From IMG/VR virus record IMGVR_UViG_3300006204_000001: DNA of 64,000 nucleotides; one strand, given 5' to 3'. Of this stretch, positions 9,313 to 62,336 are shown one piece after another (within the stretch, counting starts at the first letter, position 1; each line of letters begins with the position of its first letter). The DNA comes from a virus (taxonomy: Duplodnaviria; Heunggongvirae; Uroviricota; Caudoviricetes). The notes under the pieces were generated by a model that saw nothing but the letters and a program-made list of their open reading frames with translations, did no database searches and was not told the DNA's origin. A program made the translations under genes and the position numbers.

Positions 9313-10746
9313 ATGAATTTAGATGTTTATAATACTCATATGGAATTATATCCATATACCAAATTAGATTATCCTGTAATAGAAAAATGGTATACAGCAA
9401 CAGATAAATTTACAGGAGAAGAAAAACCATGTGGCTATATAATAGAAGATGGTAAATTATTTTTACCTAGAGGAACTTCAATTAGTAGATTGGAACATAT
9501 GTGTGATGTGAAAGCTAACTATATAATGGAGAGTGATCCATATGAAGAAATGGATTATCAACATTCAGCTTTATATGATCCTAGAGATAAATTACAAGAA
9601 GATAGTATAAAATTTCTCCTTGAAACCACAGCACAATCCGGCCTTAACTTGAAAATGGGGCTTGGAAAGACATTTGTAACAACATATGCTAGTACTAAAT
9701 TAAGAGAAAGAACTTTAATTATCACTCCTAATGACAGTTTAAAAATGCAATGGATAAATACGTATTTAAAAATGTTTGATTATAGAAGTAAACATTTAAT
9801 GAACATAACTGGTTCAAATGTTATGAATGATATTTTAGAAGGATTAATTCCTCCTAGAGATGTTTATTTTGTTAATCATCAAACATTACAGAGTTTTATG
9901 ACTTCTACTAATGGATTTACTCTTCATAATTTCTTTAAAAAATTAAATATAGGAATAAAAGTATATGATGAATCACATTTACAGTTTAACAATATTCTTA
10001 TGATAGATTTTTATTCTAATACTAAAAGAACTTGGTATCTTACAGCTACTTTTGATAGAAGTGATAAAACAGAATCTGCTTGTTTTAAGAAAGCATTTAC
10101 ATCAGTAGTAACATATGGAGAAATAGAATCTAAAGAAGATGAAGTTAAACATATTTTATATCATGTGGTAAACTTTAATAGTCATATATCTCCTAAAGAT
10201 AGAGCATCTGTTATTGGATATCAAGGATTGACAAGTGCATCATATGGTAAATATGCTTTTATGAATGATACTAATGAAACTGCTTATAGAATAATTCTTA
10301 TGATATTAAATATGATGAAAAATGTTGAAGGTAAAACTTTAATATTTGTACCTTTAATAGATGCGGTTGATAAAGTGGTTAAGAAATTAAAAACTGACTT
10401 TAGTGAAAAAAGTATAGCTGCATACCATAGTAAAATATCTAAGGATGAAAAAGAATCAGCTAAAAAGAAAGATATTATAGTATCTACAATTAAATCATGT
10501 GGAACTGGTCAAGATATACCAGGGTTACGCGTAGTAATATGTTTAGATCCCATAGCATCTAAAGTAACTGCAGAACAAGTTATTGGACGTATTAGACCAT
10601 ATAAAGTAGATGAGGAAATAAAAGACACATATTTCTTTGATTGTGTAGATGTATGTATTCCTCCTCTCAATTTTTGGTTTAGAGCAAGATATAAAAAGAT
10701 ACAGACATTAGTAAAAGAAAGCATAAATCTTAATTTAGAAAAATAA
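9313..10746 (+). CDS. superfamily-2 (DEAH/SNF2-like) helicase
   Basis: Motif I MGLGKT, motif II DESH, motif VI QVIGRIRP. Confidence 0.75.
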   Translation: MNLDVYNTHMELYPYTKLDYPVIEKWYTATDKFTGEEKPCGYIIEDGKLFLPRGTSISRLEHMCDVKANYIMESDPYEEMDYQHSALYDPRDKLQEDSIKFLLETTAQSGLNLKMGLGKTFVTTYASTKLRERTLIITPNDSLKMQWINTYLKMFDYRSKHLMNITGSNVMNDILEGLIPPRDVYFVNHQTLQSFMTSTNGFTLHNFFKKLNIGIKVYDESHLQFNNILMIDFYSNTKRTWYLTATFDRSDKTESACFKKAFTSVVTYGEIESKEDEVKHILYHVVNFNSHISPKDRASVIGYQGLTSASYGKYAFMNDTNETAYRIILMILNMMKNVEGKTLIFVPLIDAVDKVVKKLKTDFSEKSIAAYHSKISKDEKESAKKKDIIVSTIKSCGTGQDIPGLRVVICLDPIASKVTAEQVIGRIRPYKVDEEIKDTYFFDCVDVCIPPLNFWFRARYKKIQTLVKESINLNLEK

Positions 10747-22844: not shown

Positions 22845-22960
22845 ATTATTTTACGCAAATATTAGTAGATATATCAATATCTACTAATAGTAGTATGACG
22901 TAAATATCTTTAGGATTTTACGTCAAACTAACGTTTTACGTAAAATATATCATTTAAAAT
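22845..22960. promoter_or_regulatory. regulatory region: 28-bp perfect palindrome flanked by four TTTACG(T/C)(A/C)AA repeats
   Basis: ATTAGTAGATAT-ATCA-ATATCTACTAAT at 22861-22888; TTTACGCAAA (22849), TGACGTAAAT (22896), TTTACGTCAAA (22917), TTTTACGTAAAA (22934). Confidence 0.45.
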
Positions 22961-23996: not shown

Positions 23997-24037
23997 AATA
24001 AAGGGTGATTCAAATCACCCTTTATAATTATTTTTTT
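23997..24037. terminator. terminator AAAGGGTGATTCAAATCACCCTTTATAATTATTTTTTT
   Basis: hairpin + T-run. Confidence 0.65.
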
Positions 24038-35500: not shown

Positions 35501-38500
35501 AAACTAAAACAACGTAGAGAAGAACGTAATGCATCAATTAAACGTGATATGGATCGTTATAGTTTATTTGGTGGATATGCCGAATATAATAGAGAACTAG
35601 ATGCAAAACATGCTACAAATAAGAATGAATTAGAGCAATATATAGCTGAAGGAACTCCTAAGATTGTAGAAAATACAGAACAAACAAATGAAATCTTAGA
35701 TAATCTAACTGATGTAAATAGGGAATCAAATGAAGCTTTACAAAATTTAGATCGTAATAGTAGCGAGGTTGGTTCTCTATTTACACATGATCAAGGTATT
35801 CATGATAAATTAGATAAATTATATGCATTCTTAACTGGTAATACATCTACTAATAAACCAAGTAATACTCCTGAAGGTCATTATAAATCAGATAAAAAGG
35901 CAGATGATGATAGTTTAAAGAATGCATTAGAAAATAAATCATCCAAAGCACCTACTTTAATAGGTGGAGGAAATCAATCTGACCCTATATTAGGTAGCGC
36001 TCTAGGTTCAATTTCTACTATTGCAGCTAATAACGGATTATCTAATGATGAGGCACAAACTACAAATGAGACTATAGCTGAATTATCTAAAGATAAACCT
36101 AATAAAAATTCCATATCAGCTAAATTACAGAAGATTATTAATATTAATAAAACAAAATCGGATGAGGATGATAAAGATAAAAAAAAGAAAAAATCTTTAT
36201 TCTGGGATATATTAGGAAAGATTGGTAATTTTGCAGGAGGATTTCTTGATAAACTTCCTTTAATTTTAGGAGGTATTGCTGCATTTAAACTATTTTGTGG
36301 TGATTTTGAAGGTGTAAAGGATGTTGTTAGTAGAATTGGTAATGGTATAGATTCTATAGCTAGCTTTATTACAGGAAAATCAAAGGATGATGGCACAACA
36401 GCAGGAATGAATGCAGTAACATCATTAGCAGATATACAATCAGATAGTCCAATGAGTTATGCTATACCTGGAGCTGAATTATATCATAATGAACGAGATT
36501 GTGCAGGTAACAGAATTAGAAATCAAAATGCTACTAAAGCAAAGAATACTATTCTTATTGGAGCTAATCTAAAGAATGCTTTTATGAATAAATGGCATGG
36601 TACTAATAATTCTAGTTTTACATCTACAATGGCTAGAACTAGAGCTAGTATATCAGGTAGAATTAATAACATTTCGTCTAGTGTTTATAATAAACTTGAT
36701 AATAGTGTATTAGGTAAATTTGGATTAGGAAGAAAAATAAAGAATAAAGCAAGTAAGATTAGAGATAATAGTGCAGCGGCACAAGCTAATCAAGATCAGA
36801 TTGCAAATAACAATGTTACTACAGTAGATAATTTGAAATCTAGAGTAGGAACTGCAGCTAGCTTAAGTTTCTTATCAGGAGCTGCTGGTTTAGGAGCTAA
36901 AGGCATTGCTAAAGCATTTGGTAGAGATGAAGAGTCTCAAGACAGATGGAGTAGAATTGGTTCAGGTGGTACTGCATTAGTATTAACAGCTAATCATGGT
37001 ATGTCTAAACTTACTGGAAAGAAATCATTAATTGATTTATTCAAAGAATTAGTAAGTAAGTTATTTAAATACTTAGCTGGAAAATTTAAAGAAAATGGTA
37101 TACTTAAAAAATGTGCATCTAAGGTAGATGATATCTTTACTGGATTAGATACAAAAATATTTACTGGTCTTAAAGATAAGATGATAGATATTGTATCTAA
37201 GAAATTATTAGAGTTAGGAGTAGTATCAAGTGGTGAACAAGCATTATCTGCAGCTACATTAGGTATACCAATTGTAGTTGGTGGCATTAGTGGTTTTATA
37301 GATGGTATATGTGGAGTAGAACATTTGTTCAGTGTACTTCCAGGTGATGCAGATGGAACTATGAAAACGATATCTATCTTATTAAATACTGCATTAGGTG
37401 CAGCCGCATTTGTACCAGGTGTTGGTTATGCTGTAGCTTGTATTGATATTATTGATGCTATTATGTCAGCTATTCCTGTATTTAAAGGAAAAGGTTTAAC
37501 ACAATATTTAGCTGAGCTTTTATATAATATTATCAATGGAGCAAAGAATTTAGTTACTGGAAAGAAAGGTAATAAATTAAAAGAAGCACATGCTGAAGTT
37601 ACAAGAAACACAAAGGCTTATAATGAAAAATTTGGTACTAACTTAAGTGAATCTGATATTATTGATGCTACGACTAATAAAGGTTGGTGGGATGCTTTAT
37701 GGCATGGTAAAGCGTATAAAGGTGATAATGGTTTACTTGTTACTGATAGAGCTGGAAATTTCCTTGGAAAAGGTGGTATTACTAATGCTTTATTTGGTAA
37801 TAACAAAATATATGAAAGTGATACCGAAGGCAATGTCTTAAAGAATCAATATGGAGAAGCTGTAGTTAAAACTGATAAATACGGTCTCGGATCATACAAA
37901 AATAATATGAAGATCGGTGACTATGCTAAGTTTGGATTTAATTCAGCTAAACGTTTCTTTACAGGTGGTGAAGTATATAAGACTGATGAAAAAGGAAATG
38001 TCATATATGATGAAAATGGTAATCCAATTGTAGATCATAAGGAATCAAATATCTTTACGAGAGTATTTAAAGAAAAGAAATTTTTAGATGAAGCTACAAC
38101 ACAGTCTATCAACACTACTAAAAGTTTTATCAAGAATATATTTAAGAAAGAAACAATTAAAGATGAGAATGGAAATGAAATTCTTGATGAAAATGGTAAA
38201 CCTATAGAAAGAAGTAAAGCTGGAAATGTTATTGTTAAAGCTACTAATGTTATTAATGGTGCATTATTCGGAGGAGTAGGAGGTGTATTTAAAGCTCTTA
38301 AGAAGAATGAAAAAGAGCAATATGAATTAGACGAAAATGGTAAACCGTTATTAGATGCAGATGGTAACAAAGTTAAGAAAGGAACACTTGGTTCTGTAAT
38401 TACTAAAGGATTAGGTAAGATAGGAAATACAGCATTATCATTCTTAACTGGTGGAGCATTAAAAGATACTGAGTTAGTTAAAAGTGTTAAAAATAGTAAA

Positions 38501-40912
38501 TGGTTTGATACTTTATCTAATATGATTAATGGTATTAATAAAGGTGGTCCCGAAAATATTGCTAATAATATAAGCAATGCAGCTAAGAGTATAGCATATA
38601 ATGCAGCAAATGTTACTAAAGGAGCACCTACGACTGAAGGCGGCAATCCATTAGATAAAGAATATAAAATTACAAGTACTTTTGGTCCAAGAAAATATCC
38701 TCATACTGGAGAACATCATGGTGTTGATCTTAAACCTGCTGGAAATATGAATACATATGCAGATGTATTTAGTAGATTTAGTGGTGTCATTGAAGATATA
38801 AAGTCTGATGTTCCTAATACAGATCATGCAGTTATGTCACAAGATGGAACATGGACTTATGAAGGTAATAATGAAACTGGTAATATGGTTTCTATTAGAA
38901 CTAAAGATGGATTCTTAATTAAAAATATGCATCTGAAACAAGGTACTATACCTACTAATCTTAAAGTTGGATCTGAAATACAAGCTGGTCAGAAGATAGG
39001 TGAAATGGGTAACACAGGTTGGTCAACTGGTCCTCATTTACATTATCAGATACAAGATCAAAATGGTAATTATATAGATCCAACATATACATTACTTGGA
39101 ACTCCAAATTCCAAAAATGGAATAAGTGGCGCAATAAATTCAGTGGCTAATGTAACTGCTTCAACTATAACTGGGTCATCTTATTATCCATCAGCTTCTT
39201 CAGATAACCAAACTACATCTGGTGGTATATTAGCTGAAATATTATCTGTAATAAAGGATGCAGGTAATAGTTTATTAAGTAAGATTACTGGTGGTTTAAT
39301 AGGTAACTCATCAAGTAATAATTCAGATGAATCATCAGCATATTCAACAGGAGTAATGTCTGCAGAAAATACTATGTTGACAAATTCTCCTAATAGTGAT
39401 TGGGTTTCTATAGTAAGAGCAGTAAAACAATTAGTAGCAGCTCAAGCGCCGGTATATAATCAATCAGGTTATATTAATATTACTTATAATGGGAGGACTG
39501 TAAAGACAAGAACTGATTGTACTGGTATCATAGCTACTATGTTAAAATTCTATGGGGTGTTACCAGAATCAACTAATATTACTTCAAGAGTATTATTAAC
39601 TGAAGGAGCTATACCAAATGGATTTACAAAATCACCTTGGCCAGGTTGGGATAAGTTAGTGGAAGGTGATATTATTAGTAGAGCTGGACATGCAGAAATA
39701 TTTGCATTTAATAACGGAAATAAACATATGGTTTATAATGGTGGATCTACTAATGCACTTGCATCACCTGGGGCTACTTATACTGGTCATAAAGATGGTT
39801 ATGATGTTATTTGGAGATGTAATGAAACTTCATCTATTAACAATTTAATACCAGGAATGTCAAATGGTGTATTAGGAACAGGAGCTGAATTATTATTTCC
39901 ACAAGAATATGGTCATAATGAAACATTTGAAAAAGAAATTCTTAAGGATAAATATGACTCACCTACTCATGGATGGTCTCCTTCTTCAAGACAAGGGCAA
40001 CTACGAAAAGATGCTATTGCAAATAATCGTCTTAAACCACAAAATGCATTTGGTTTAACAAATGTGGCAACTATAGATGATAGAATGCTTATAGCAACAA
40101 AAGAAAATATAGGTAACCAATTCCCTGTTAATGTAGGTGATCATGTAGATGTACAGTTTACTGATGGATCTGTATGGAATACAATGATTGGTGATATTAA
40201 GGGTAATGATGCACCACATCCATGGGGTCATAATAATGGTAAAGATTCTGTAGAAATTATTTATTGGGATTATAAAAATAATTCTGGTAATCAAAGAAAG
40301 AAAGTGAATAAACTTGTAAAGACTGGTGGCACTTATATACCAGGAGCTGCTCCATCTAAAACTGATATAAATAATATAGGTATGATAGGTGGTATTTCTA
40401 ATAATTTATTACAGAATATAACCAATGCTGGTATTAATAAAGCTAATACAAGTATATCAAATGGAACTGGTGGACCTGTAGATTCATCAACTACAATAAA
40501 CAAACAAAATTATACATCTACTAAGACACAAATAACAAAGCCAAAAAATAATATCGTTTCTATAAATAATATTGATAGTAGATCAAAATCAATTGAATCA
40601 TCTAAGCGAGAAGTACCAACAGCAAGATCAGAAAGTGCTTCTAATAATATTAGTAATGATAATAAAGAGATAATAAAATTATTATATTCTATAATTGATT
40701 ATCTTGGTTCAATTGATAATAATTCTGGAACTTCAAATGAATTACTTAATTCTATTAACAGTAGTGGATTTGTAGATCAAGGTTTAAGAAATGAATTAAG
40801 CTCTGCTTCTGAGTTAATAAATAAGAAAAGAGCTAATAAACATACCATGAATTATAAACAAACAAATCCTGCAAATAATAGAATGATATCAAATTTAGCT
40901 AGACCTGTATAA
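32540..40912 (+). CDS. giant tape-measure-like virion protein (2790 aa) with M23 peptidase and NlpC/P60-like cysteine peptidase domains
   Basis: Coiled-coil N-half; glycine-zipper TM segment LISTSIGALGGGLLAGPLGVLMGSMAGS; M23 motifs HTGEHHGVD ... GNTGWSTGPHLHYQ (about 38650-39090); Cys/His pair DCTGIIATML ... GHAEIFAF (about 39440-39830); RBS GAGGTGGTG. Confidence 0.8.
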   Translation: MSNTINEKTTSLSFLKQAANVITNGSISYINKVMPNTTDTLKEAKATVNEVTSTFSNTTGNVFPILRKLKSQISYKGILNWFYEKEDSFDSGVDIPSSYDDGSDFEMAEVQINQSEKNAKEISQTIVESSRHMVESEIASTANLTHTISAQTAVITSGFDSVNKNLENIAEIISKNTSAIIELQTASSKVELISRTQTDADESRKRMQSGKFNLSDYKAILKDNFANSELGLSLGTASGLLSNSGMIKDLLSPTNLLSVGISKAVDKASPNFRKNAKALDDAISETIMTSLIRLGESKKEVFGVNLGKIFGIDSSREKIDTSRQTLELHATPFDTLTKDTINSGITGYLRKILVAVGGDDVIYDARSRSFKTQKQLKKEYRAESINTSALYQATDRVKQNLGNEDFTKMMYSLMMNDLSNRTGPNGNARNQINQFKNFDVTYDYLKSLLGNNATSTDLDNIKVLAKRLGRLPTGYGEQDIMNQAAREAIKRNNKMKEYVINADNYGVDLSFINDSTKADANTIKKTFGRSDIEIKNSPSRISTLTNIDYTYKALYEIYRRLNKGINVFKVGENNRRSKPYTDWKDNYLSKPSGYKSKTINDADTTTNGILANMGRLDDGPNQLRNNTLEDGTTEELTGGQRFSRWGKQRGGEFIKAMFSGNPGDVKRVFGNIIQDVSGVASDKIKSQANKVNDKYGNASGYLKHKLFGTSYRYTNDEGKEVEIEKNDKGGYAGFIKKKLFGKLGDTNNSVQKWFKDVAGYFDYGNKEDKKNGVESKRKKLISTSIGALGGGLLAGPLGVLMGSMAGSAFSNFNIGDKFKEKLFGRDDNGKAKGLLTKVFDKMTRPITYQIKKTTNYFGNVLKKNIFGPLSDLGFAMRERMLHHVDGLMKKTMNFIKNSFIGKAFSAAKKKVGGAVKTGAKKVFGGLGNLLYGGSVGTLGLAARQTLNANTLLPRAGLNGLSNLLVHNTGTYEVDPDTGERVWVSGKDKLKQRREERNASIKRDMDRYSLFGGYAEYNRELDAKHATNKNELEQYIAEGTPKIVENTEQTNEILDNLTDVNRESNEALQNLDRNSSEVGSLFTHDQGIHDKLDKLYAFLTGNTSTNKPSNTPEGHYKSDKKADDDSLKNALENKSSKAPTLIGGGNQSDPILGSALGSISTIAANNGLSNDEAQTTNETIAELSKDKPNKNSISAKLQKIININKTKSDEDDKDKKKKKSLFWDILGKIGNFAGGFLDKLPLILGGIAAFKLFCGDFEGVKDVVSRIGNGIDSIASFITGKSKDDGTTAGMNAVTSLADIQSDSPMSYAIPGAELYHNERDCAGNRIRNQNATKAKNTILIGANLKNAFMNKWHGTNNSSFTSTMARTRASISGRINNISSSVYNKLDNSVLGKFGLGRKIKNKASKIRDNSAAAQANQDQIANNNVTTVDNLKSRVGTAASLSFLSGAAGLGAKGIAKAFGRDEESQDRWSRIGSGGTALVLTANHGMSKLTGKKSLIDLFKELVSKLFKYLAGKFKENGILKKCASKVDDIFTGLDTKIFTGLKDKMIDIVSKKLLELGVVSSGEQALSAATLGIPIVVGGISGFIDGICGVEHLFSVLPGDADGTMKTISILLNTALGAAAFVPGVGYAVACIDIIDAIMSAIPVFKGKGLTQYLAELLYNIINGAKNLVTGKKGNKLKEAHAEVTRNTKAYNEKFGTNLSESDIIDATTNKGWWDALWHGKAYKGDNGLLVTDRAGNFLGKGGITNALFGNNKIYESDTEGNVLKNQYGEAVVKTDKYGLGSYKNNMKIGDYAKFGFNSAKRFFTGGEVYKTDEKGNVIYDENGNPIVDHKESNIFTRVFKEKKFLDEATTQSINTTKSFIKNIFKKETIKDENGNEILDENGKPIERSKAGNVIVKATNVINGALFGGVGGVFKALKKNEKEQYELDENGKPLLDADGNKVKKGTLGSVITKGLGKIGNTALSFLTGGALKDTELVKSVKNSKWFDTLSNMINGINKGGPENIANNISNAAKSIAYNAANVTKGAPTTEGGNPLDKEYKITSTFGPRKYPHTGEHHGVDLKPAGNMNTYADVFSRFSGVIEDIKSDVPNTDHAVMSQDGTWTYEGNNETGNMVSIRTKDGFLIKNMHLKQGTIPTNLKVGSEIQAGQKIGEMGNTGWSTGPHLHYQIQDQNGNYIDPTYTLLGTPNSKNGISGAINSVANVTASTITGSSYYPSASSDNQTTSGGILAEILSVIKDAGNSLLSKITGGLIGNSSSNNSDESSAYSTGVMSAENTMLTNSPNSDWVSIVRAVKQLVAAQAPVYNQSGYINITYNGRTVKTRTDCTGIIATMLKFYGVLPESTNITSRVLLTEGAIPNGFTKSPWPGWDKLVEGDIISRAGHAEIFAFNNGNKHMVYNGGSTNALASPGATYTGHKDGYDVIWRCNETSSINNLIPGMSNGVLGTGAELLFPQEYGHNETFEKEILKDKYDSPTHGWSPSSRQGQLRKDAIANNRLKPQNAFGLTNVATIDDRMLIATKENIGNQFPVNVGDHVDVQFTDGSVWNTMIGDIKGNDAPHPWGHNNGKDSVEIIYWDYKNNSGNQRKKVNKLVKTGGTYIPGAAPSKTDINNIGMIGGISNNLLQNITNAGINKANTSISNGTGGPVDSSTTINKQNYTSTKTQITKPKNNIVSINNIDSRSKSIESSKREVPTARSESASNNISNDNKEIIKLLYSIIDYLGSIDNNSGTSNELLNSINSSGFVDQGLRNELSSASELINKKRANKHTMNYKQTNPANNRMISNLARPV

Positions 40913-53610: not shown

Positions 53611-53647
53611 TTTAAAATCACCCTTTATTTTTTTATAAAAATACTGG
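53611..53647. terminator. bidirectional terminator AAAGGGTGATTTTAAAATCACCCTTTATTTTTTT
   Basis: hairpin + T-run. Confidence 0.7.
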
Positions 53648-54184
53648 TTTATTTTTTGTAGAATTTCCCTTTAATACTTTATTAGCATTATATCCGCTCA
53701 TATTAAGAAATTTTTCCATCATTGGATGAAATCTATTATTCATTTCATCTATAAATTTATCTGTGTATTCTGTTATCATTCCAATATATTGCGAATCTAT
53801 ATCTTCTGATTTCAAATTACTAATACATTCATTAATATTTTTAATGGTATTATTTATTCCTGATATATATGATTCTATAAATTTTGGTATTTCATTATAT
53901 TTATTTTCTGTATCTTCAAATAATTGGGTATCAATATACCCAATACCAGCTTCATATATAACTTTATATGGAGATGAATTTTTATTGTTTGATTCTTCTA
54001 TTATGTATTTACAGCATTTATTTACATACTCATTAAATCTATCAAATGCCTCATTAATATTAAATAATGTTATTTTGTAATCTTTTATATTTAAACCCCA
54101 TTCATTTGCTAATTCATTTATAGAATCCATCATACCTCGATTATATTTTTCAAGAAATTCTTTTATAGCATTATCAATTTTCAT
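53633..54184 (-). CDS. hypothetical protein
   Basis: 183-aa ORF, RBS AAAGGAGTTT. Confidence 0.45.
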   Translation of the reverse strand: MKIDNAIKEFLEKYNRGMMDSINELANEWGLNIKDYKITLFNINEAFDRFNEYVNKCCKYIIEESNNKNSSPYKVIYEAGIGYIDTQLFEDTENKYNEIPKFIESYISGINNTIKNINECISNLKSEDIDSQYIGMITEYTDKFIDEMNNRFHPMMEKFLNMSGYNANKVLKGNSTKNKPVFL

Positions 54185-54494
54185 ATATTAAAACTCCTTT
54201 CTTATAATAAACGCTTAAATTATATACACGTTTCTAAATTCAATGATATATTATTAGTGTAGATATAAATAAAATTATATCTTATTTCATATATTTTTTC
54301 TTTATATTAATTTACTGCTACTTTTATAAATAATAAATTTCTCCTTTCATATTGGATTATATATAAATTACTCCAAATATTATAAGGGTAGCAGTAATTA
54401 ATATTATATGAAATATTAATTTTGAAATAAACATGAATTATTTTCATGCTTATTAATATATTAATAAAGTTTTAATTTTAAGGAGGAATTTAAA

Positions 54495-54752
54495 ATGAGT
54501 AACATTGAAGAAAAGTATCTTTTAAAAGATGGAGAAACAGTGCCTGAGGGTTATGTTGTAAAAACATGTGAAGTATGTAACAGATCATTTGCAATGCCTG
54601 CAGATGTTGCAGAGAAATCAGGACCAATTTGTGAGTCAGCTGAGTGCAAAAATGAATATGAAAGAAGATGCATAGAGCAAACAAAAGCTCTTATGAAATC
54701 AGATACAGCAACGCAAACAGAAGCGGAAATCAAAACAGCACTTGGAAATTAA
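54495..54752 (+). CDS. small zinc-ribbon protein
   Basis: CEVCNRSF..(x16)..PICESAECK; RBS AAGGAGGAAT. Confidence 0.45.
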   Translation: MSNIEEKYLLKDGETVPEGYVVKTCEVCNRSFAMPADVAEKSGPICESAECKNEYERRCIEQTKALMKSDTATQTEAEIKTALGN

Positions 54753-54759
54753 ACATATA

Positions 54760-54796
54760 AAAGAGTGGGATATAATTCTCACTCTTTTATTTTTGT
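54760..54796 (+). terminator. terminator AAAGAGTGGGATATAATTCTCACTCTTTTATTTTT
   Basis: hairpin + T-run. Confidence 0.6.
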
Positions 54797-54815
54797 TGTT
54801 AAAGGAGAAAAGTAT

Positions 54816-55565
54816 ATGGGAAACAATAATGAGTTAAAATATATAACAGAAGAAGAATTAGATAAAATTTTTAAATTTTGGCCATTTAATTTATTACATG
54901 AAATATTTGGTGTAAATATTGATTGTATCTATACGAATATTAATAATATTCATACAGTATTAACAGCACCTGATTTGTTAAGTGAAAAAGAATTAGATGT
55001 AATATTATATAGATTTAAATCATATATGATATTTAGTGATATTGCAAAAAAGGTGAATGTTACTAAACAAAGAGTGACTGAATTGCAAAATCATGCAATA
55101 TTTAAGTTAAGAAGAATAATGAATTTCGATTTGAAGAGCATTGATTATAGAACGTATAACGAGATTAATGGAAAATATAATACATTACTTAAATCATATA
55201 AAGAATTAGAAAAATATGAAATCATAGGAGAGGATATAAAGGAAAAAAATAAATCTGAAATGTATAAAGACATTAATATTGCAACTTTAAGACCAAAAAT
55301 GTCTAATAGGTTGTTTAATTGTTTATATAGAGGAGATATATATACAGTATATGATCTAATTAATATGGATATTTATAGAGCTATGAAAATTAGAAATTTT
55401 GGTTTAAAAACTTTTGAAGAATTATTAGTAATTCTTAAAGCAAATGATTTAACTTTAAAAAGAGTAAGAAATAGAAAATATGAATATGATGATATATTAA
55501 ATGCTTCTAAATTATATATAGAATTAATTGGTAAATCACCATTTATAGAAGAGGAGGAAGAATGA
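54816..55565 (+). CDS. putative transcription factor: sigma-70 region-4-like HTH fused to RNAP alpha-CTD-like helix-hairpin-helix domain
   Basis: LSEKELDVILYRFKSYMIFSDIAKKVNVTKQRVTELQNHAIFKLRR ~ sigma region 4.2; LRPKMSNRLFNCLYRGDIYTVYDLINMDIYRAMKIRNFGLKTFEELLVILKANDLTL ~ alpha-CTD (LLRP..[9 protein letters not shown]...I.GDL....E.ELL...N.GKKSL.EI...L...GLSL); RBS AAAGGAGAAAAG. Confidence 0.6.
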   Translation: MGNNNELKYITEEELDKIFKFWPFNLLHEIFGVNIDCIYTNINNIHTVLTAPDLLSEKELDVILYRFKSYMIFSDIAKKVNVTKQRVTELQNHAIFKLRRIMNFDLKSIDYRTYNEINGKYNTLLKSYKELEKYEIIGEDIKEKNKSEMYKDINIATLRPKMSNRLFNCLYRGDIYTVYDLINMDIYRAMKIRNFGLKTFEELLVILKANDLTLKRVRNRKYEYDDILNASKLYIELIGKSPFIEEEEE

Positions 55566-55891
55566 GTTTTAAAATAAATAATACATTAAAAGATACCATT
55601 GATATGAAATCAGTTTATACAACTTTTATCGTATGTGATTCTCCTGATCAGTTAAAATATTTACATAGAAAATTTATGGATCTGGTATTATCAACAGACG
55701 AATTCTTATATGCTAATAAAGATTCTATTATGACAGATGATAGACATAAATATGTATTTTGTTTTTATTCTAATTATGAAAATCTTAACCGTGGTATTGG
55801 AATGAATCAAAATAAAATTACTGGAATAATTTTTGAATCTATGATGAATTCATTTATTAATGGAGGAAGCAAAGAATGGGCAAGTATATAA
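55562..55891 (+). CDS. hypothetical protein, translationally coupled (ATGA overlaps on both sides)
   Basis: 109-aa ORF between the two sigma-R4/alpha-CTD-like genes. Confidence 0.45.
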   Translation: MSFKINNTLKDTIDMKSVYTTFIVCDSPDQLKYLHRKFMDLVLSTDEFLYANKDSIMTDDRHKYVFCFYSNYENLNRGIGMNQNKITGIIFESMMNSFINGGSKEWASI

Positions 55892-56487
55892 CTGAAGATG
55901 ACAAAGAAAAAATATTAATGTTATGGCCGTATAATCTCAGTAAAGTTATATTTAAAGATGATAACCCATTAGAAATATCTTTAACAGGATTAGATTTAGC
56001 ATTATCACATTTAGATGTAGATAAAATTAAATTAATTTTATTACGTTATCGAGAATACATGACTTATGATAAGATAATGAGTATAACTGGATTAGAAGAC
56101 GTAGATAAAATTAATGAAAAAATTCATATTGCTATAACAATATTAAGATCATATGCTGATTGTATTAAAAGTAAATCAATAAAAGAATTTGAATATCCTA
56201 TAAGCAAAACTAAGATACATTCAGATATATTAAATATAAATTTATCTGTTATTGATATACATCCTTTAGCTATATGGGAATTAAAACAAAATGGAATTGA
56301 TAATATTCTTAAATTAACTAAGATGGCACCACATGAATTATGGTACACTAAATATATAGGTCAATCTAGATTTATTAAAATATTAGAATATTTAAAATCC
56401 CATGAATTGTCATTATCATGTGACGATAATGTTGAACTTAATTATCGTAAATCTTATAAGATTTACAAACAATATTTTTCAGATTAA
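55876..56487 (+). CDS. paralog of 54816..55565: sigma region-4-like HTH + alpha-CTD-like domain
   Basis: LDVDKIKLILLRYREYMTYDKIMSITGLEDVDKINEKIHIAITILR ; LSVIDIHPLAIWELKQNGIDNILKLTKMAPHELWYTKYIGQSRFIKILEYLKSHELSL. Confidence 0.55.
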   Translation: MGKYITEDDKEKILMLWPYNLSKVIFKDDNPLEISLTGLDLALSHLDVDKIKLILLRYREYMTYDKIMSITGLEDVDKINEKIHIAITILRSYADCIKSKSIKEFEYPISKTKIHSDILNINLSVIDIHPLAIWELKQNGIDNILKLTKMAPHELWYTKYIGQSRFIKILEYLKSHELSLSCDDNVELNYRKSYKIYKQYFSD

Positions 56488-56500
56488 AAAAAATAAATAT

Positions 56501-56535
56501 GAAAGGGTGGTATTATTATACCACCCTTTATTTTT
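56501..56535. terminator. bidirectional terminator AAAGGGTGGTATTATTATACCACCCTTTATTTTTT
   Basis: hairpin flanked by A-run and T-run; serves convergent genes. Confidence 0.7.
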
Positions 56536-56696
56536 TATCCATATTTATATCCAGGCTGATTAGATTGAGCATTCAAAATTCTATTTCTAATTTCTGTATC
56601 AATAAGATCTTGACGTGCTTTTTCTTGTTGTGCTTTAACAGCTTCCTGAATTTTCTTTTCTTCTTCTGCTGTAAATTTAATTGTTGAATTAGCCAT
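56535..56696 (-). CDS. small hypothetical protein (53 aa)
   Basis: MANSTIKFTAEEEKKIQEAVKAQQEKARQDLIDTEIRNRILNAQSNQPGYKYG; RBS AAAAGGAGGTG; start overlaps upstream stop (TAATG). Confidence 0.45.
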   Translation of the reverse strand: MANSTIKFTAEEEKKIQEAVKAQQEKARQDLIDTEIRNRILNAQSNQPGYKYG

Positions 56697-56884
56697 TATA
56701 AACACCTCCTTTTGTTAATCCAATTATTTCTTTTTTGATTTCTTTCTAACAAATATATTCTCTTGTTATTTTTATTAGTTTCTTCTTTAATAATATCAAG
56801 AACACTTGTTATACTACTCTGTTTAGTAACATATTCATGTAATTCTTGTGAATTTGGTATTGTAGTTTTAACATGTTTAATCAT
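56696..56884 (-). CDS. small basic hypothetical protein (62 aa)
   Basis: MIKHVKTTIPNSQELHEYVTKQSSITSVLDII..; RBS AAAGGAGGAAAATAAAA. Confidence 0.45.
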   Translation of the reverse strand: MIKHVKTTIPNSQELHEYVTKQSSITSVLDIIKEETNKNNKRIYLLERNQKRNNWINKRRCL

Positions 56885-57028
56885 TTTTATTTTCCTCCTT
56901 TCTTTATTATAATAAAAATATTTCTCAATGTATATTTTCAAAATATATAATTATTTATTCACGTATATTATAGTAACATATTTAATTTCTACCATTTAAT
57001 TTAAATAATAAAAAAATGAGGTGATTAA

Positions 57029-57478
57029 ATGGATAATACTATTATTGGTTATGATACAACATTTGAATTGAACGAATTTAATCAACCAAGGATACGTAGT
57101 GAAATAGAAACAGTAAAAAATACTATTCTTTTTATTTTATTTGCAAAACCTGGATCATATCCATCTATACCCTATTTAGGTATGGATATACAAAATACTC
57201 TATATTCTTTTTATGATGAATTAGATACATCTAAGATGGAAGATGATTTAATTCAACAATGTGAAGCATTACAAGTATTTTTTAATAAAGGAGATATAGG
57301 AATAAAGAAAGTAAAATATAAAGGAAAAATACCTTCATTACTTATTCATATAGAAGGTGAAGAAACATATCCTGAAGGTTATATGAAGAATCCAATAAAT
57401 AATATTAATCGTTATTTAATAGGATTAACTTATAATGAACTAAATGAAATGTTAGTGAATATTAATAGTGAAATATAA
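57029..57478 (+). CDS. baseplate wedge protein, gp25/GPW-like
   Basis: VKNTILFILFAKPGSYPSIPYLGMDI resembles the GPW/gp25 core (I..I..IL.T..GER...P.FG); RBS AATGAGGTGATT. Confidence 0.5.
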   Translation: MDNTIIGYDTTFELNEFNQPRIRSEIETVKNTILFILFAKPGSYPSIPYLGMDIQNTLYSFYDELDTSKMEDDLIQQCEALQVFFNKGDIGIKKVKYKGKIPSLLIHIEGEETYPEGYMKNPINNINRYLIGLTYNELNEMLVNINSEI

Positions 57479-57493
57479 AGGAGGTTAATTAAT

Positions 57494-58216
57494 TTGGTTA
57501 CTAATAGAAAATATATAGAAAAGTTAATATATGATACATATGATGCATTAGATCCATCTGGTACTAATACTCAAAAATATAGATCTATATTAGAAAATTT
57601 ATCTGATAAAGAATTTGAAAAGTTTTTTAAAGATTTTTTAAAAGACGAACATGAAAACTTTGTGTTAGATATTGTAGAGTTAGAAAGACCAATAAAAATG
57701 GAATATTGTCAAAAAGCAGCTAAAGTTGTTGGTATACCATTAATGGAATATGTATATATGCCACATCTTACTATGGATAAATCTAATGTAATAGTATCAA
57801 AAGAAAAATGTCTTGTAGGATTTATGAATATTAAAAGACCACAACAAATGGTTTATAAAAAGAATTCATTATCCATATCAGATGAAAAACGTTCGGCTAC
57901 TACTGGTCAGGTTGTAGCTAAAGATAAAAATGCACGTGATAGTGATATTGAAGCTTCATTGTTAGTATCTTTAGGAGCAAATAAAATACTAGCTGAGTTT
58001 CATGGACCAAGAGCTGATGATATTATAATGAAACGACAAATGAATCAAAGTATAAAGAATAAGGGATATGTAATATTAGATGAATTAGAGAATCTTCCTA
58101 CTAACAAGGTTACTCTTAATACTGTAAATACATATTTATTATCTATGATGCTTAAGTCAGATCTTGTATCAGATACATATATTTTACCTAAAACATCTGA
58201 AGAATTATTTACTTAA
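57494..58216 (+). CDS. hypothetical protein (structural-module neighbour)
   Basis: 240-aa ORF, RBS AAAGGAGGTT. Confidence 0.45.
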   Translation: MVTNRKYIEKLIYDTYDALDPSGTNTQKYRSILENLSDKEFEKFFKDFLKDEHENFVLDIVELERPIKMEYCQKAAKVVGIPLMEYVYMPHLTMDKSNVIVSKEKCLVGFMNIKRPQQMVYKKNSLSISDEKRSATTGQVVAKDKNARDSDIEASLLVSLGANKILAEFHGPRADDIIMKRQMNQSIKNKGYVILDELENLPTNKVTLNTVNTYLLSMMLKSDLVSDTYILPKTSEELFT

Positions 58217-58297
58217 TATATTTTATTTCTAATACTATATTATTAAGCTTACAATAGCGGGATAATACAAATAATATTTAAAAAGGAGATGACAAAA

Positions 58298-58795
58298 ATG
58301 GCAAGTTTAAGAATTCAGGTTCTTGGAACAGGATTAATTCCTAGAGGTTTAGGATTAGCTCCTAGAAAAGAGCCATTCCCTGCAGATTTTACATTAATTG
58401 GAACTATAATGGCTACAAATGGATTGAAGATTAATTTCTTGAATCCTACAACAAATAAGTTTGTTGAGCTTACAAATAAAAATGTAAAACAAATGTGGGA
58501 TAAATATTCTGATTATGATTTTACAGGATCAAATAATGTGCCTGTAAAAGAAACAGTAAAGAAACCTGTTGTAGAAAAAACTACAACGCCTCCAGTTGTA
58601 CCTGTTTCCAATGATTCTAATACTATAGAGAAAGAGAAAGAGGAAGATAAACCTGTTGTAGAGGAAGAGTCAGTTATTAAAATAGAAACTTCTGATGATA
58701 ATACAGAATCTAAAGAATCTGATACCCAGGTAAATAATAATTCAATGAAACCATCATTCAATAATGGTAATAACAAGAAAAAGAATCATAGATAA
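58298..58795 (+). CDS. hypothetical protein with Pro/Thr/Glu-rich linker
   Basis: ORF from MASLRIQ (RBS AAAAGGAGATG); KPVVEKTTTPPVVPV..EKEKEEDKPVVEEE linker. Confidence 0.45.
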   Translation: MASLRIQVLGTGLIPRGLGLAPRKEPFPADFTLIGTIMATNGLKINFLNPTTNKFVELTNKNVKQMWDKYSDYDFTGSNNVPVKETVKKPVVEKTTTPPVVPVSNDSNTIEKEKEEDKPVVEEESVIKIETSDDNTESKESDTQVNNNSMKPSFNNGNNKKKNHR

Positions 58796-58799
58796 TATA

Positions 58800-58836
58800 A
58801 TGAAGAGGACATAATGTCCTCTTCATTTATTTTTAT
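58800..58836 (+). terminator. terminator TGAAGAGGACATAATGTCCTCTTCATTTATTTTTATTTT
   Basis: 12-bp stem + T-run. Confidence 0.65.
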
Positions 58837-58915
58837 TTTAATGATATATTTTTTAAATGTATATAGAACAATCTATACATAAAATAAATCAAAAAATGGA
58901 GGTATAAAGAATATT

Positions 58916-61069
58916 ATGTCAGATAACGCCTATGAAGAGCTTGAAGTCTACGATTTACCTACTATACGTACAATCGAAGATTGTGAACGTGAATTTCCTG
59001 ATGTCATAATTATTTCAAGGTATGATACATATGAAAAATTTGATGAATTGTATTATAAGGTTTACTACGCATTATGCGCATGTATAGAAATAAAGGAATG
59101 CGCAGGATATCCTATAAAATTCAAATTTTATCCAGATGAAGATCATATTTATAGTTTATCTATGGCTAAATTCTTATTGAATTTAAATGCATGGAGACCA
59201 TTAATAGAATTGCATAGTCTTAGTGATTATTATAAAAGACAGATAGAAGTTCTTGATGAAAGTTTCATAGTTGGTACAATGATGTCTGATTCAATGAGAA
59301 TGGGTTTAGAATCAAAAGTATTAAAAGTATTAAATGATTATGGAATTGATTTTAGTAGAACTTCTATATTGTTAAAAACAGTTATTGAGAGATATCAAGA
59401 AGCATCTATCGAGTTTGCTCTTACACGAGGTAGTAGTGTTCTAACATATGAAAGTATATTTCTTAATGACTATAGGACATCAGAAAAAATTAGAGAATTA
59501 AATAACTTAAAAATACCACAAAGTTTACAGACATCAGAAGTAGAAGATGTATTACGTGAAAAGACTAATGAACTTATTACAGAACTAGGTAGAACAAAGA
59601 ATCCTATATGGTATATAAGTAAAGCTGGTAATCACATAAAACAAAAACAGGTACAGGAATTATATATTTCATATGGTCAGATTCCAGATGTATCAGGTAA
59701 TGTTATTCCTTATACAATGCAAGGTAATGGTTTTTCTACTGGCTATCTTGATCCTGCTACATATTATATTGCTGCAACTGGATCTAGATTATCAGCTATT
59801 ATGAATAAAGCACATATGGGTGAAGCAGGTTATTTATCACGTAATTTGATATTAGCTAGTAGAACTATGACATTATCTAGAACTATGTATGATTGTGGAA
59901 CAAAACATATGTTACATTTAAAAGTAACTGATAGTACATTCTTACATAGATTAGAGAATAAATGGTATTGTGAGCATTTAGGTCAGCCTTTAAGATTAAT
60001 TCATTATGCAGATTGTAAACATCTTATAGGTAAAACTATATGGGTACGATCACTAATAACATGTGCTGGTGGAAATGAAGTATGTCATGTATGTTATGGT
60101 AATGATAGTAATCTTGTTATGAATATGCCAGGTATGGCTATATTTAATACAGAGGTGTACTCGGAGCCTGTTGGACAAAATATTCTATCTACAAAACATT
60201 TATTATTTACAGCTGCTAATAAAATTGTATTCAGTAATTCTTTCAATAAATATTTTAAATATGATTCTGGTGATATATATATGAAAGAAAAAGATGAATG
60301 GGATTTAAATATATCTGCAGAAAATTTTACTATAAGAATAGAAATAGAAAATGTAATTCCTATCAATAAACAAGACTTAGCAGAATATAATACATTTGGT
60401 AATCATATTGAATCACCTTTCTATATTTATAATAAGAAAGATAATACATATGATAAAATTGAGATTATAAATTATGAATCCATGTTTATTGATGCAACAT
60501 CTATGAAGAGTTTCAAAATAATTACTGATAAAAAGAATAATAAACAATATTATGAAATTCCGTTAGATGTTTTATCATCTGATCTTGAAGGTAGATTATT
60601 GTCCATTGATATTAAGAATAATGGATTAACAGATAATCTTTATATGATCATGAATATTCTTAATAAAAATGCAAATAAATATGAAACCTATGATCAATTA
60701 GCACAGGAATTCTTTGAAATACTTATTAATTCAGGAATTAGGTGCAGGCATGTGCAAGCAGAAGTTATTCTTAATAGACTTATTAGAGATGCTAATAATC
60801 TTTATAATAGACCTGACTTCTCACAATTCAAACAACCTGAATACAAGATACTTACATTGAATCAAGCTTTATTAAATACTAAAGCTCCTACTATAGGATT
60901 TTCATATCAAGAAGTTAAAAGACAAATTTTATCAGATGCATTATATGAAGATAAAGATGGATCATCATTCTTGGATCCTTTATATGCAGATAAAATTAGT
61001 ACGGATCATTTAAGAGAGTTAGTACAAAAGATAAGTGAAAGGAGAAAAATGAGACATGCAACAGCCTAA
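58916..61069 (+). CDS. multisubunit RNA polymerase beta' subunit, C-terminal fragment
   Basis: [22 protein letters not shown] ~ RpoC [49 protein letters not shown] ~ [42 protein letters not shown] ~ [37 protein letters not shown]. Confidence 0.8.
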   Translation: [717 protein letters not shown]

Positions 61070-61547
61070 ATGTAATTATGAAAATGCAATTAATGCATTG
61101 AATGAAATGAATCAAAGTATCGAAAAGCAAATGAAGGAATCAGAAGATGTAAAAAATGGTACTATGACATTAGATGAAAAACTCGATCAAGAAGGTTATA
61201 CTTTATTTAAAATGATAACCGAAGATATCGAAAAAATGATGAATGAAAAAGTAGTACAAGATGTATTTGAAATTATTAAAAATTCTACTGATAAACAAAT
61301 GGCAGATGCTGTTTGTAGTTTAATGATGACATTAATGGCATTTTCTTCTCATGATGCAGTTAGTAGATATGATGAGATGATTACAGAAAAATTAAATCAT
61401 CAATTTGATATCATTAATAACAATATGTTGATGTTGAAGAGTTCTATAGAAGCTCATGATGCAGTATTAAAAGTACAGAAGAAAAAGATTGATGATCTTG
61501 AAATGAAATCAAAGAAAATTCCTGAAAGTAAATTCTTTAATAATTAA
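61056..61547 (+). CDS. hypothetical coiled-coil protein
   Basis: 163-aa ORF overlapping end of RNAP gene by 14 nt. Confidence 0.45.
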   Translation: MQQPKCNYENAINALNEMNQSIEKQMKESEDVKNGTMTLDEKLDQEGYTLFKMITEDIEKMMNEKVVQDVFEIIKNSTDKQMADAVCSLMMTLMAFSSHDAVSRYDEMITEKLNHQFDIINNNMLMLKSSIEAHDAVLKVQKKKIDDLEMKSKKIPESKFFNN

Positions 61548-61549
61548 TT

Positions 61550-61586
61550 TAGGAAGGGGATTAATCCCCTTCCTATTATTTTTTAT
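61550..61586 (+). terminator. terminator AGGAAGGGGATTAATCCCCTTCCTATTATTTTTT
   Basis: hairpin + T-run. Confidence 0.65.
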
Positions 61587-61619
61587 GATATATTCTCTAT
61601 ATAGAAAGGAGATGGATAT

Positions 61620-62336
61620 ATGGGTTATAATCCAAAAAAATCTGTATGGTTAAATCCTGATATAGAATACATATTTGGTGATGAAATTATTGAATATGAT
61701 ATCAGAGATGCAGGGTTTAATTTGATACGACAATATAAATTATTACCTGAAGAAAAAATAAAAGAATTATTATATATGGAAAAAATGGAAAGGCATATTA
61801 CTATAGGTAAGATACAAGGAGCAGATAAAGATTTTTCTGATGTATTGATGAATAAATTTGCAGAAATCAGATCTATATTTATTAATACAAATAAAATCCG
61901 TGATAATGATATTATTAGTGTTAAAAAAGATGCTCTATTTATTATCGGTGAACAACAACGAACAAAATTTGGAATGGTTGAGTTTCGAGATAAGAATAGA
62001 TATTCTTCATATATTAGATTTCCAAATATAAGAGATTTAGAAATTTATTATGGAGAAGATAATTTTGATATAAAAGGTATGGGTGATTCTGCAATATCAA
62101 GGCATAGACTTTATATGATAGAATTTTTAAGAAATATAATTTCTATGTTGGAAAATAGTGATATTCGAATTAAGAGATATTTAAAAAAGTTTATTGATAA
62201 TTATAAATTCCATAATCTGGATGAAGAATATTATTTAGAATTTAATAGTAAATCTACAGATATCAATTATTTATTTAATTATCAAAATATAATATTACCG
62301 ATAACCCAAATTGTTATAAAACTTATAGGTGAATAA
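61620..62336 (+). CDS. hypothetical protein
   Basis: 238-aa ORF, RBS AAAGGAGATGG. Confidence 0.45.
   Translation: MGYNPKKSVWLNPDIEYIFGDEIIEYDIRDAGFNLIRQYKLLPEEKIKELLYMEKMERHITIGKIQGADKDFSDVLMNKFAEIRSIFINTNKIRDNDIISVKKDALFIIGEQQRTKFGMVEFRDKNRYSSYIRFPNIRDLEIYYGEDNFDIKGMGDSAISRHRLYMIEFLRNIISMLENSDIRIKRYLKKFIDNYKFHNLDEEYYLEFNSKSTDINYLFNYQNIILPITQIVIKLIGE

Follow-up and report, generated by a model that had tools for sequence, protein, structure and literature searches.

Two genes in a 64,000-nucleotide (nt) stretch of DNA from a tailed phage of the Caudoviricetes (IMG/VR record IMGVR_UViG_3300006204_000001; the whole stretch is called the window here) encode proteins that join a helix-turn-helix (HTH) segment like region 4 of σ70 to a segment that resembles the C-terminal domain (αCTD) found in the α subunit of RNA polymerase (RNAP). 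We refer to them as protein 1 (P1) and protein 3 (P3). Upstream of the −10 element, bacterial RNAP reads DNA through two modules, σ region 4 and the αCTD. These contact each other at strong promoters and are favorite targets of activators and phage takeover proteins. From sequence comparisons we conclude with high confidence that P1 and P3 descend from a fusion of host σ region 4 and αCTD, that they are members of a large family, uncurated and carried mainly by phages, and that they are neither σ factors nor α subunits. Our confidence is equally high that selection maintains them within an accessory cassette.

P1 and P3 are related to both host modules

P1 matches the Pfam model RNA_pol_A_CTD over residues 143 to 208 with 43.2 bits (cut-off, 23.8; E = 3.2e-11) and Sigma70_r4 over residues 55 to 99 with 23.1 bits, just under the cut-off of 24.1 (E = 5.1e-5). 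It also matches a σ-factor PHROG (E = 1.3e-5), and a search of PDB sequences returned Firmicute RNAP αCTDs down to E = 1.5e-6 and region 4 of RpoS at E ~ 0.05. When P1 was compared by hhalign with an alignment of the family described below, from which the window proteins had been excluded, the match extended over residues 15 to 218 (99.9%, E = 2e-36). The start codon of P1 is preceded by the ribosome-binding site (RBS) AAAGGAG, and the identical 249-amino-acid (aa) product is called in other assemblies.

P3 has no Pfam match, even at E ≤ 1, and no PDB match. An NCBIfam rpoA model matches it weakly through the C-terminal part (residues 78 to 182, E = 4.8e-5), and hhalign aligned residues 11 to 186 with the same family alignment, which excludes the window proteins (98.9%, E = 4e-17). 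The N- and C-terminal halves of P3 each match family members independently; the C-terminal half by itself matches one member, P0140, at E = 6.6e-10, and a homolog of P3, P0004, matches the αCTD subprofile at E = 3.4e-4. An earlier note on this DNA, made from the sequence alone, had described the αCTD-like part of P3 as closely matching; it is real, but strongly degenerate. The central proposal of that note, that both segments derive from σ70 region 4 and the αCTD, is borne out by the Pfam, PDB, NCBIfam, and hhalign evidence, and profile searches did not assign the segments to unrelated HTH or helix-hairpin-helix families.

In Pfam, neither Sigma70_r2 nor Sigma70_r3 was found in P1, P3, or 10 scanned family members, and the same proteins had no match to the α N-terminal domain (RNA_pol_L or RNA_pol_A_bac). 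NCBIfam rpoA models match via their C-terminal ~90 positions only, with scores far under the cut-offs. At ~200 aa, such proteins are too short to accommodate σ region 2. Since they lack σ region 2 and the α N-terminal domain, P1 and P3 are neither σ factors nor polymerase subunits.

The fusion defines a large, mainly phage-borne family

An exhaustive HMMER search with the P1 alignment over 1.84 billion cluster representatives (50% identity clusters) gave 861 matches at E ≤ 1e-3; word-indexed searches with single proteins found near-identical homologs only. Most of the best 150 of the 861 are proteins of 190 to 330 aa that align in one stretch spanning both domains. The order in the family is an N-terminal motif, (Y/W)P(F/Y)NL, followed by a SigA-like region 4, a helical linker of 30 to 70 aa, and the αCTD. 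Both domains occur in 129 of the 149 best representatives, so that at least 129 clusters carry the two together, and subprofiles also detected the N-terminal motif in 87. The other 20 representatives have two to four tandem αCTDs and no σ region 4 (P0005, P0026, P0041, P0049, and 16 more). Both Pfam domains were found at E ≤ 1e-3 in 69 of the 71 members of the family alignment; because P3 has no Pfam match, the two exceptions are probably, by elimination, P3 and P0004. Ten distant members scanned singly scored 42 to 73 bits for Sigma70_r4 and 54 to 91 bits for RNA_pol_A_CTD, well over the cut-offs. Pfam HHH_5 co-matched the αCTD of scanned members, and some members have an additional N-terminal XRE-type or HTH_17 domain.

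Typical members are very close to the host modules. Their region 4.2 is almost identical to that of primary σ factors, and their αCTD is canonical (LSVRSYNCLKRAGI...IRNLGRKS). Against PDB sequences the family profile matched the Bacillus subtilis αCTD at E = 5.6e-31 and SigA region 4 at E ~ 2e-22, in separate chains, and among the best 60 chains listed none was matched through both domains. Pfam has no model for the combination, nor does NCBIfam, where rpoA and rpoD models match partially and far under their cut-offs; in PHROGs only generic σ-factor families match, through the σ part. The source names of members are automatic labels such as "sigma-70 family," and a full-text literature search found no description of such a fusion. 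The architecture is therefore nonstandard, as the earlier note put it, in being absent from Pfam, NCBIfam, PHROGs, and PDB, but it is not unique to this phage.

Full-length matches in annotated phage records were found, among the matches listed, only in unannotated human gut "Bacteriophage sp." contigs. Temperate siphophages are the setting of three typical members, which lie in early/replication modules among genes for integrase, cI/Cro-type repressors, SSB, RecT or Sak, a replication organizer, a DnaC-like loader, RusA, and methylases; in one of these contexts the fusion gene is ~3 kb upstream of an HNH-TerL-portal-capsid series. Another member has many small genes around it on a phage contig of ~88 kb. 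The context of member P0172, an NCBI genome contig of 1.97 Mb, looks cellular, as no phage genes are recognizable near it. A genome scan with P0183 as the query returned P0183 itself and ordinary rpoA genes only. In a metagenome-assembled genome of an uncultured gammaproteobacterium (GCA_964499655.1; L013), tandem 398-aa copies of the σ-αCTD fusion (7465-8661 and 8779-9972) lie in chromosomal DNA with housekeeping genes around them, immediately upstream of rplJ-rplL; judged by its sequence and setting, this pair is a cellular version of the family, paired like the copies in the window. The nearest solved homologs of both domains, in searches of PDB sequences, are from Firmicutes, which is the sole pointer to the phage's host and only a hint.

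Typical members keep the DNA-reading residues, and P1 and P3 have diverged

The functional roles of the σ70 and α residues that contact promoter DNA are established, and we counted these residues over 67 typical members, using Escherichia coli numbering. For the αCTD DNA determinant the counts were 67 for R265, 61 for N268, 60 for C269, 63 for N294, and 67 for G296; position 298 is K in 45 and R in 12 members, and position 299 is S in 49 and T in 9. For the σ residues that contact the −35 element they were 41 (R584), 51 (E585), 60 (R586), 57 (R588), and 61 (Q589), and for the other σ positions 53 (K593), 56 (R596), and 47 (R603). The 261 determinant of the αCTD (D258, D259, E261), which contacts σ R603 as the αCTD-σ contact pair, is acidic in most typical members, and the σ C-terminal tail is retained through the L607 position. 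Since typical members keep both residue sets, they are predicted to read the −35 hexamer together with an adjacent UP-like A/T tract. The host modules read −35 and UP sequences side by side in holoenzyme.

P1 keeps all seven αCTD DNA contacts: R165, N168, C169, N194, G196, K198, and T199 equate to E. coli R265, N268, C269, N294, G296, K298, and S299. Its 261 determinant has been replaced (A156, R159, K161), and its 287 determinant also departs from host-type residues. In the σ-like part R586 is kept (R86), and the other positions have changed: R584K, E585Q, R588T, and Q589E in the recognition helix (K84, Q85, T88, E89), followed by K593H, R596F, and R603N (H93, F96, N103). On this residue evidence P1 has lost the surfaces touched by host partners (the 261 and 287 determinants and σ R596 and R603) and has kept its DNA-contact surface. 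The proline at position 23, within the N-terminal motif of P1, is nearly invariant across the family. The 21-residue heptad pattern in the P1 linker was reached by 0 of 200 shuffles (the heptad and promoter analyses used simple custom scripts). P1 also has a C-terminal extension, residues 215 to 249 (55458-55562), that ends in SPFIEEEEE, is invariant in its two homologs, and is absent from typical members; it may be a protein-interaction tail.

P3 has gone further. Its σ changes are R584V, E585D, R586K, R588N, Q589E, and K593I (V76, D77, K78, N80, E81, I85), with T88 at R596 and a gap at R603, so that none of the σ contacts is kept. In the αCTD the changes R265L, N268W, C269E, N294Y, K298S, and S299R (L131, W134, E135, Y160, S164, R165) leave one of the seven DNA contacts, G296 (G162), and the 261-determinant sites are S124, V125, and D127. 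The linker of P3 is shorter than that of P1, contains proline, and has no heptad pattern.

Because these contact residues are replaced or lost, neither P1 nor P3 should read the host −35 hexamer or make the canonical host contacts. The two proteins have the N-terminal motif, σ region 4, and C-terminal αCTD of the family, and neither has host-type DNA-contact residues in both domains; as P1 keeps the αCTD set only and P3 neither set, both are atypical, divergent members. Direct alignment of P1 with P3 is confined to the N-terminal ~70 aa (37% identity, E = 4e-8), where the segment with the N-terminal motif is best conserved. The two had been called paralogs, and both do belong to one family, but they are not each other's closest relatives. 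P1 is absent from the best family matches of P3, so they are old or separately acquired paralogs and not products of a recent tandem duplication. No close relative of P1 was found in IMG/VR.

P1 and P3 lie in a four-gene cassette under purifying selection

The P1 and P3 genes are separated by a gene for a third protein (P2) and preceded by a gene for a probable zinc ribbon (Table 1). P2 had no significant family match in Pfam or PHROGs. The Zn-ribbon product had only subthreshold matches to Pfam zinc fingers, and its gene was found in all related contigs shown. Relatives of P2 or of the Zn-ribbon protein did not adjoin the fusion genes of other phages, and the family thus has no conserved partner among them.

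The earlier note read P1 to P3 as a three-gene operon coupled by ATGA overlaps. This holds for the P1/P2 junction (55562-55565), but the overlap of P2 with P3 is 16 nt long (55876-55891), and the unit probably includes the Zn-ribbon gene as well. A terminator-like hairpin separates that gene from P1. It is kept in a diverged relative, L001, with a single stem change from G·U to G-C, and is a candidate attenuator, partial terminator, or RNA-stabilizing element. It leaves 25 nt before the P1 start and therefore no space for a separate P1 promoter. With only this distance between a conserved hairpin and P1, P1 to P3 are probably transcribed through the hairpin, in one unit with the Zn-ribbon gene.

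All four cassette genes are present in L001, with 78 to 98% amino acid identity. The ratio of nonsynonymous to synonymous substitution rates (dN/dS) between the window and L001 was 0.05 for the Zn-ribbon gene, 0.42 for P1, 0.26 for P2, and 0.22 for P3, and all four genes are under purifying selection.

Table 1. Features of the cassette and of the P1 and P3 proteins in the window
Feature	Position	Strand	Description
Candidate AR9-type early promoter	54242-54255	+	AATGATATATTATT; weight-matrix score 10.9, best site of the 310-nt upstream region
Zn-ribbon gene, first of the cluster	54495-54752	+	85 aa; CxxC...CxxxxC pattern; strong RBS; zinc ribbon probable
Hairpin and T-run between Zn-ribbon gene and P1	54757-54790	+	Terminator-like; −19.9 kcal/mol, z = −6.5
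P1	54816-55565	+	249 aa; N-terminal motif, σ region 4-like HTH, heptad linker, αCTD, acidic C-terminal tail
P1 N-terminal family motif	54837-54908	+	KYITEEELDKIFKFWPFNLLHEIF; WPFNL at aa 22-26; motif subprofile E = 7.5e-8
P1 σ70 region 4-like HTH	54978-55115	+	aa 55-100; Pfam Sigma70_r4 E = 5.1e-5; family subprofile E = 6.8e-16
P1 linker segment	55146-55208	+	YRTYNEINGKYNTLLKSYKEL; perfect a/d heptad (6/6 a/d positions hydrophobic); possible coiled coil
P1 αCTD	55242-55457	+	aa 143-214; Pfam 43.2 bits
P2, middle gene	55562-55891	+	109 aa; ATGA overlap with P1, translationally coupled
P3	55876-56487	+	203 aa; degenerate member of the P1 family; N-terminal motif WPYNL at aa 17-21 (subprofile E = 1.9e-4)
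P3 σ region 4-like segment	55987-56148	+	aa 38-91; degenerate recognition helix; subprofile E = 4.1e-4; hhalign runs through the region
P3 αCTD-like segment	56248-56415	+	aa 125-180; NCBIfam rpoA C-terminal match E = 4.8e-5; DNA-contact residues lost
Bidirectional terminator-like hairpin ending the cluster	56502-56529		Faces convergent genes; −18.9/−18.8 kcal/mol, z = −4.5/−4.7

Two other terminator-like hairpins of the window, at 7440-7468 and 23998-24025, have a common stem, ATAAAGGGTG/CACCCTTTAT. One copy of the stem 10-mer is in the cassette's own terminator (56502-56531) and another is at 53619-53628; the 10-mer is ~70-fold enriched over expectation, which suggests a reused terminator module.

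The cassette may be transcribed early

A de novo motif of the window, AAT(T/G)ATATATT(C/A)TA, is intergenic, often in divergent pairs, and lies 43 to 71 nt upstream of most gene starts that it precedes. Its cores start at 5077, 6085, 6096, 9279, 12635, 12661, 23043, 24300, 27479, 40966, 43251, 46881, 51141, 53186, 58844, 61588, and 63563. The core agrees with early promoters annotated in Bacillus phage AR9 (AAATATATATTAT and AATATATTATTAT), and AT-rich motifs of this type are the early promoters of the virion RNAP in these phages (PMC7598289). The motif is probably the early promoter of this phage's virion RNAP.

The region upstream of the cassette contains a candidate promoter of this type (Table 1). 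The first 146 nt of the intergenic region (54185-54330), between the divergent gene at 53633-54184 (minus strand) and the cassette, are 100% identical to positions 2368 to 2513 of L001. For the four genes compared with L001, dS was 0.17 to 0.48, and across coding regions 15 to 35% of synonymous sites differ between the window and L001. The identity of the 146 nt indicates dense regulatory constraint or recent local exchange. Because of the AR9-like motif and the fully conserved upstream region, it is plausible that the cassette is transcribed early, probably from an AR9-type promoter.

A scan for σ70-type promoters around the cassette found 27, against 32 expected from shuffles, and was thus no better than chance. 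In another part of the window, four TTTTACG(T/C)(A/C)AA(A) repeats in both orientations, including a perfect palindrome, TTTACGTAAA, lie at 22849-22945 in a 358-nt intergenic region upstream of the gene at 23106. The window has no other exact copy; mismatched sites occur elsewhere, giving 24 matches overall versus 12.8 expected. The cluster resembles an array of operators or iterons that would serve some DNA-binding protein. We rejected it as a target of the cassette, near which the TTTACGTMAA repeat has no counterpart and to which it has no demonstrable link. The DNA near the cassette showed no iteron-like repeats.

The cassette is probably not part of the RNAP machinery conserved in related phages

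The phage is a jumbo phage assembled from several metagenomes, with a longest contig of 289 kb; its genome has 26% GC, and the window is AT-rich, with ~22 to 32% GC along its length. No DNA-level match to positions 54000 to 62000 was found among annotated phage records. The product of 58916-61069 (717 aa) is a distant homolog (24 to 27% identity) of the C-terminal β' subunit of the nonvirion RNAP (nvRNAP) of AR9/PBS1, phiR1-37, and staphylococcal jumbo phages, and a weaker copy of the early-promoter motif precedes its gene. The cassette lies 2.4 kb upstream of this β' gene, and genes for DNA polymerase B and gyrase/topoisomerase lie upstream of the cassette. Between the cassette and the β' gene are small convergent open reading frames, a baseplate-like gene, and a gene for a conserved jumbo-phage protein, all structural or unrelated.

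We considered whether the cassette lies inside an RNAP gene cluster and rejected this. The product of 57494-58216 (plus strand, 240 aa) has matches in PHROGs (PHROG 3233) and RefSeq, both named "RNA polymerase beta subunit," and is conserved over phiKZ-like and AR9-like jumbo phages. Its homolog in the original phiR1-37 deposit (g203) is named a phage structural protein, which makes the RNAP label doubtful and probably an annotation error; accordingly, no RNAP gene cluster surrounds the cassette.

Jumbo-phage multisubunit RNAPs (msRNAPs) have no homologs of α, σ, or ω, and the host ones are not stably bound (a 2026 review, PMC13282480). The earlier note suggested that P1 and P3 might supply upstream promoter recognition of the σ region 4/αCTD kind to one of the msRNAPs of this phage. 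The absence of α and σ from such enzymes, the nearby β' gene, and a P1 with an intact minor-groove reader and a recognition helix no longer specific for the host −35, encoded in a genome of 26% GC, would fit such a role. The distribution of the cassette does not. In four IMG/VR relatives whose nvRNAP β' is 71 to 77% identical, the flanking block is kept (homologs of genes 57029, 57494, 58298, β', 61056, and 61620), and no homolog of the Zn-ribbon protein, P1, P2, or P3 was found around the β' gene (10 kb upstream in three; 6.2 kb, to the contig end, in L084); no σ region 4, αCTD, or N-terminal-motif subprofile matched the same DNA. Since the cassette is missing at the syntenic locus in four relatives, it is a lineage-specific accessory element, which speaks against a conserved function as a subunit of RNAP. 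A tblastn search matched P1 (E ≤ 1e-3) to no AR9-like or phiKZ-like genome, and searches with P0007 (E ≤ 1e-8) and P0021 (E ≤ 1e-3) gave no match in cultured AR9/PBS1-, phiR1-37-, or phiKZ-type phages among the matches listed (for P0021, 40 of 109 records). The three typical members in siphophage modules have no RNAP genes within the 10-kb flanks examined. AR9 gp148 ("sigma factor, HTH domain") was tried as a relative and is unrelated to the family (2.8% probability). The nvRNAPs of AR9 and phiKZ already have a specificity subunit of their own, gp226 or gp68 (PMC7598289), and no conserved −35-like or UP-like element lies upstream of the early-promoter motif of the window.

The window also contains two giant open reading frames, 13274-21490 (minus strand, 2,738 aa), whose product has no Pfam match whatsoever, and 32540-40912 (plus strand, 2,790 aa), whose sole Pfam domain is Peptidase_M23 (aa 2099 to 2181); the latter product could be a tail protein, or one for ejection, that carries a lytic domain.

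DISCUSSION

The explanation that we place first, tentatively as a whole, is that P1 and P3 are old, divergent members of the family, P1 a DNA-binding regulator and P3 a modulator that does not bind DNA. A family-specific N-terminal motif and a helical linker would have been added to the captured host domains, and the resulting proteins would be free-standing, outside the polymerase. The Zn-ribbon gene, P1, P2, and P3 form a lineage-specific accessory cassette, probably transcribed early via an AR9-type promoter. P1 would bind DNA, perhaps as a dimer through the heptad linker, with the αCTD surface recognizing a minor groove rich in A/T and the re-specified HTH recognizing a neighboring major-groove site, no longer the host TTGACA. 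Bound in this way, on DNA of the phage or of the host, it may regulate transcription or occlude it. P3, with fold and N-terminal motif kept, would work through contacts with other proteins; it might modulate P1, for instance, or have the same partner. Taken singly, the roles of P1 (a regulator with an intact minor-groove reader and a re-specified HTH, possibly dimeric) and of P3 (a non-DNA-binding paralog working via protein contacts) are each proposed with moderate confidence from residue patterns.

Several observations weigh against this explanation. So many basic or polar contacts have gone from the σ-like helix of P1 (R588T, K593H, R596F) that it may be unable to bind DNA. As a test, the heptad count is crude, with no more than 23 of 67 linkers in the family reaching P ≤ 0.05. 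AlphaFold2 models of P1 and P3 from three-sequence alignments had mean confidence (pLDDT) scores of 37.5 and 43.0 and were unusable. The candidate promoter is a moderate match and lies ~250 nt from the first start codon, versus 43 to 71 nt for most sites, and the lack of a −35-like or UP-like element upstream of the phage's early-promoter motif leaves P1 nothing of that kind to read there. The relatives without the cassette are partial contigs, and copies elsewhere in those genomes are possible.

A rather unlikely alternative, though a possible one, is takeover of host transcription by mimicry: the fusion would occupy the −35/UP DNA of strong host promoters or compete with σ region 4 for the β-flap and so shut down −35/UP-dependent host transcription, as T4 AsiA or staphylococcal phage G1 gp67 does by another route. 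Typical members have features that would suit this, with the exact −35-reading residues of SigA, the αCTD DNA determinant, an acidic 261 determinant, R603, the σ tail through L607, and a location in early/replication modules; the window cassette is itself probably early, and some RNAP-encoding jumbo phages also carry factors that act on host transcription or takeover (PMC13282480). P1, however, has replaced R584, E585, R588, Q589, R596, R603, and the 261 and 287 determinants, and in P3 nearly all contact residues are gone. The suggestion in the earlier note of a decoy that titrates host RNAP contacts thus seems to fit typical members better than P1 and P3, since P1 has lost the partner-contact surfaces and kept the DNA-contact surface. 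A more elaborate version, in which the family is an unrecognized class of takeover proteins mimicking the upstream promoter reader and the window copies have been recruited as accessories of a viral msRNAP without σ and α, strikes us as improbable.

Less probable again is a nontranscriptional role, in which the captured domains serve as generic DNA-binding modules at a replication origin or partition site or in genome compaction. The DNA polymerase B and gyrase/topoisomerase genes upstream of the cassette, the SSB, RecT, DnaC-like, and replication organizer genes beside typical members, and the modest sequence specificity of the αCTD, a double helix-hairpin-helix (compare the HHH_5 co-matches), would suit it; the strong conservation of the SigA −35-reading residues in typical members points instead to promoter-like targets, and iteron-like repeats are lacking near the cassette. 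A dedicated role of P1 and P3 with the phage msRNAPs, equally improbable, is the least supported option, given the distribution described above.

Phage factors that target the function of σ region 4 or of the αCTD include T4 AsiA/MotA and Alt/ModA and S. aureus phage G1 gp67. phiKMV Rac is of the same class (PMC7552054). All act at the same node, upstream promoter recognition, in early or takeover functions, but they bind, modify, or cleave host domains and are unrelated in sequence, whereas the family described here consists of copies of those domains. Its αCTD is clearly homologous to that of RNAP (PF03118), and the 265 determinant is kept in P1 and nearly all members; unlike α, the family version stands downstream of σ region 4 and has no N-terminal assembly domain, and therefore its proteins cannot be RNAP subunits. 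P1 differs further in lacking the 261 and 287 determinants, and P3 in lacking the DNA determinant as well. The HTH likewise includes regions 4.1 and 4.2 and the C-terminal "RHPSR" tail of SigA/σ70 (PF04545), with the −35-contact residues altered or lost in P1 and P3; as regions 1 to 3 are missing, core binding and −10 recognition would be too, and the proteins are not σ factors.

AR9 gp226 and phiKZ gp68 are also small proteins, from the same broad phage group, that have been proposed or shown to confer promoter specificity (PMC7598289, PMC13282480), but they are core-binding subunits conserved in all msRNAP phages, while the cassette is missing at the syntenic locus even in close relatives. 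We set them apart from P1 and P3 by the tblastn searches with P1, P0007, and P0021 and by distribution, not by direct comparison with gp226. Bacillus phage vB_BmeM-Goe8 gp005 and the tandem αCTD-repeat proteins, which lack σ region 4 and the N-terminal family motif, are cases of independent phage capture of a host αCTD. Goe8 gp005 (L010, 1959-2591), a Herelleviridae terminal-region protein, combines one αCTD (Pfam, 78 bits) with an unrelated N-terminal part and carries the annotation "RNA polymerase subunit alpha."

In engineered α-σ region 4 chimeras, made for bacterial two-hybrid and transcription studies, an isolated region 4 on a flexible linker can read an ectopic −35 element. Such chimeras support DNA binding by a free-standing region 4 module; they are artificial, and in them region 4 replaces the αCTD on the α N-terminal domain and is part of an RNAP subunit, whereas the natural family has no RNAP assembly domain.

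In the libraries and literature that we searched, we found no description of a large phage family that copies and fuses both upstream promoter readers and keeps their DNA-reading residues. The family suggests an unexplored route by which phages may interfere with, or piggyback on, promoter recognition. If its members are ordinary site-specific regulators, the interest would be mainly evolutionary, as a case of domain capture from the host transcription machinery. The presence of two divergent copies in a phage that has its own σ-less, α-less polymerases suggests that the module can be repurposed, and P1 and P3 form a testable pair, one likely to be competent for DNA binding and the other without the canonical DNA contacts.

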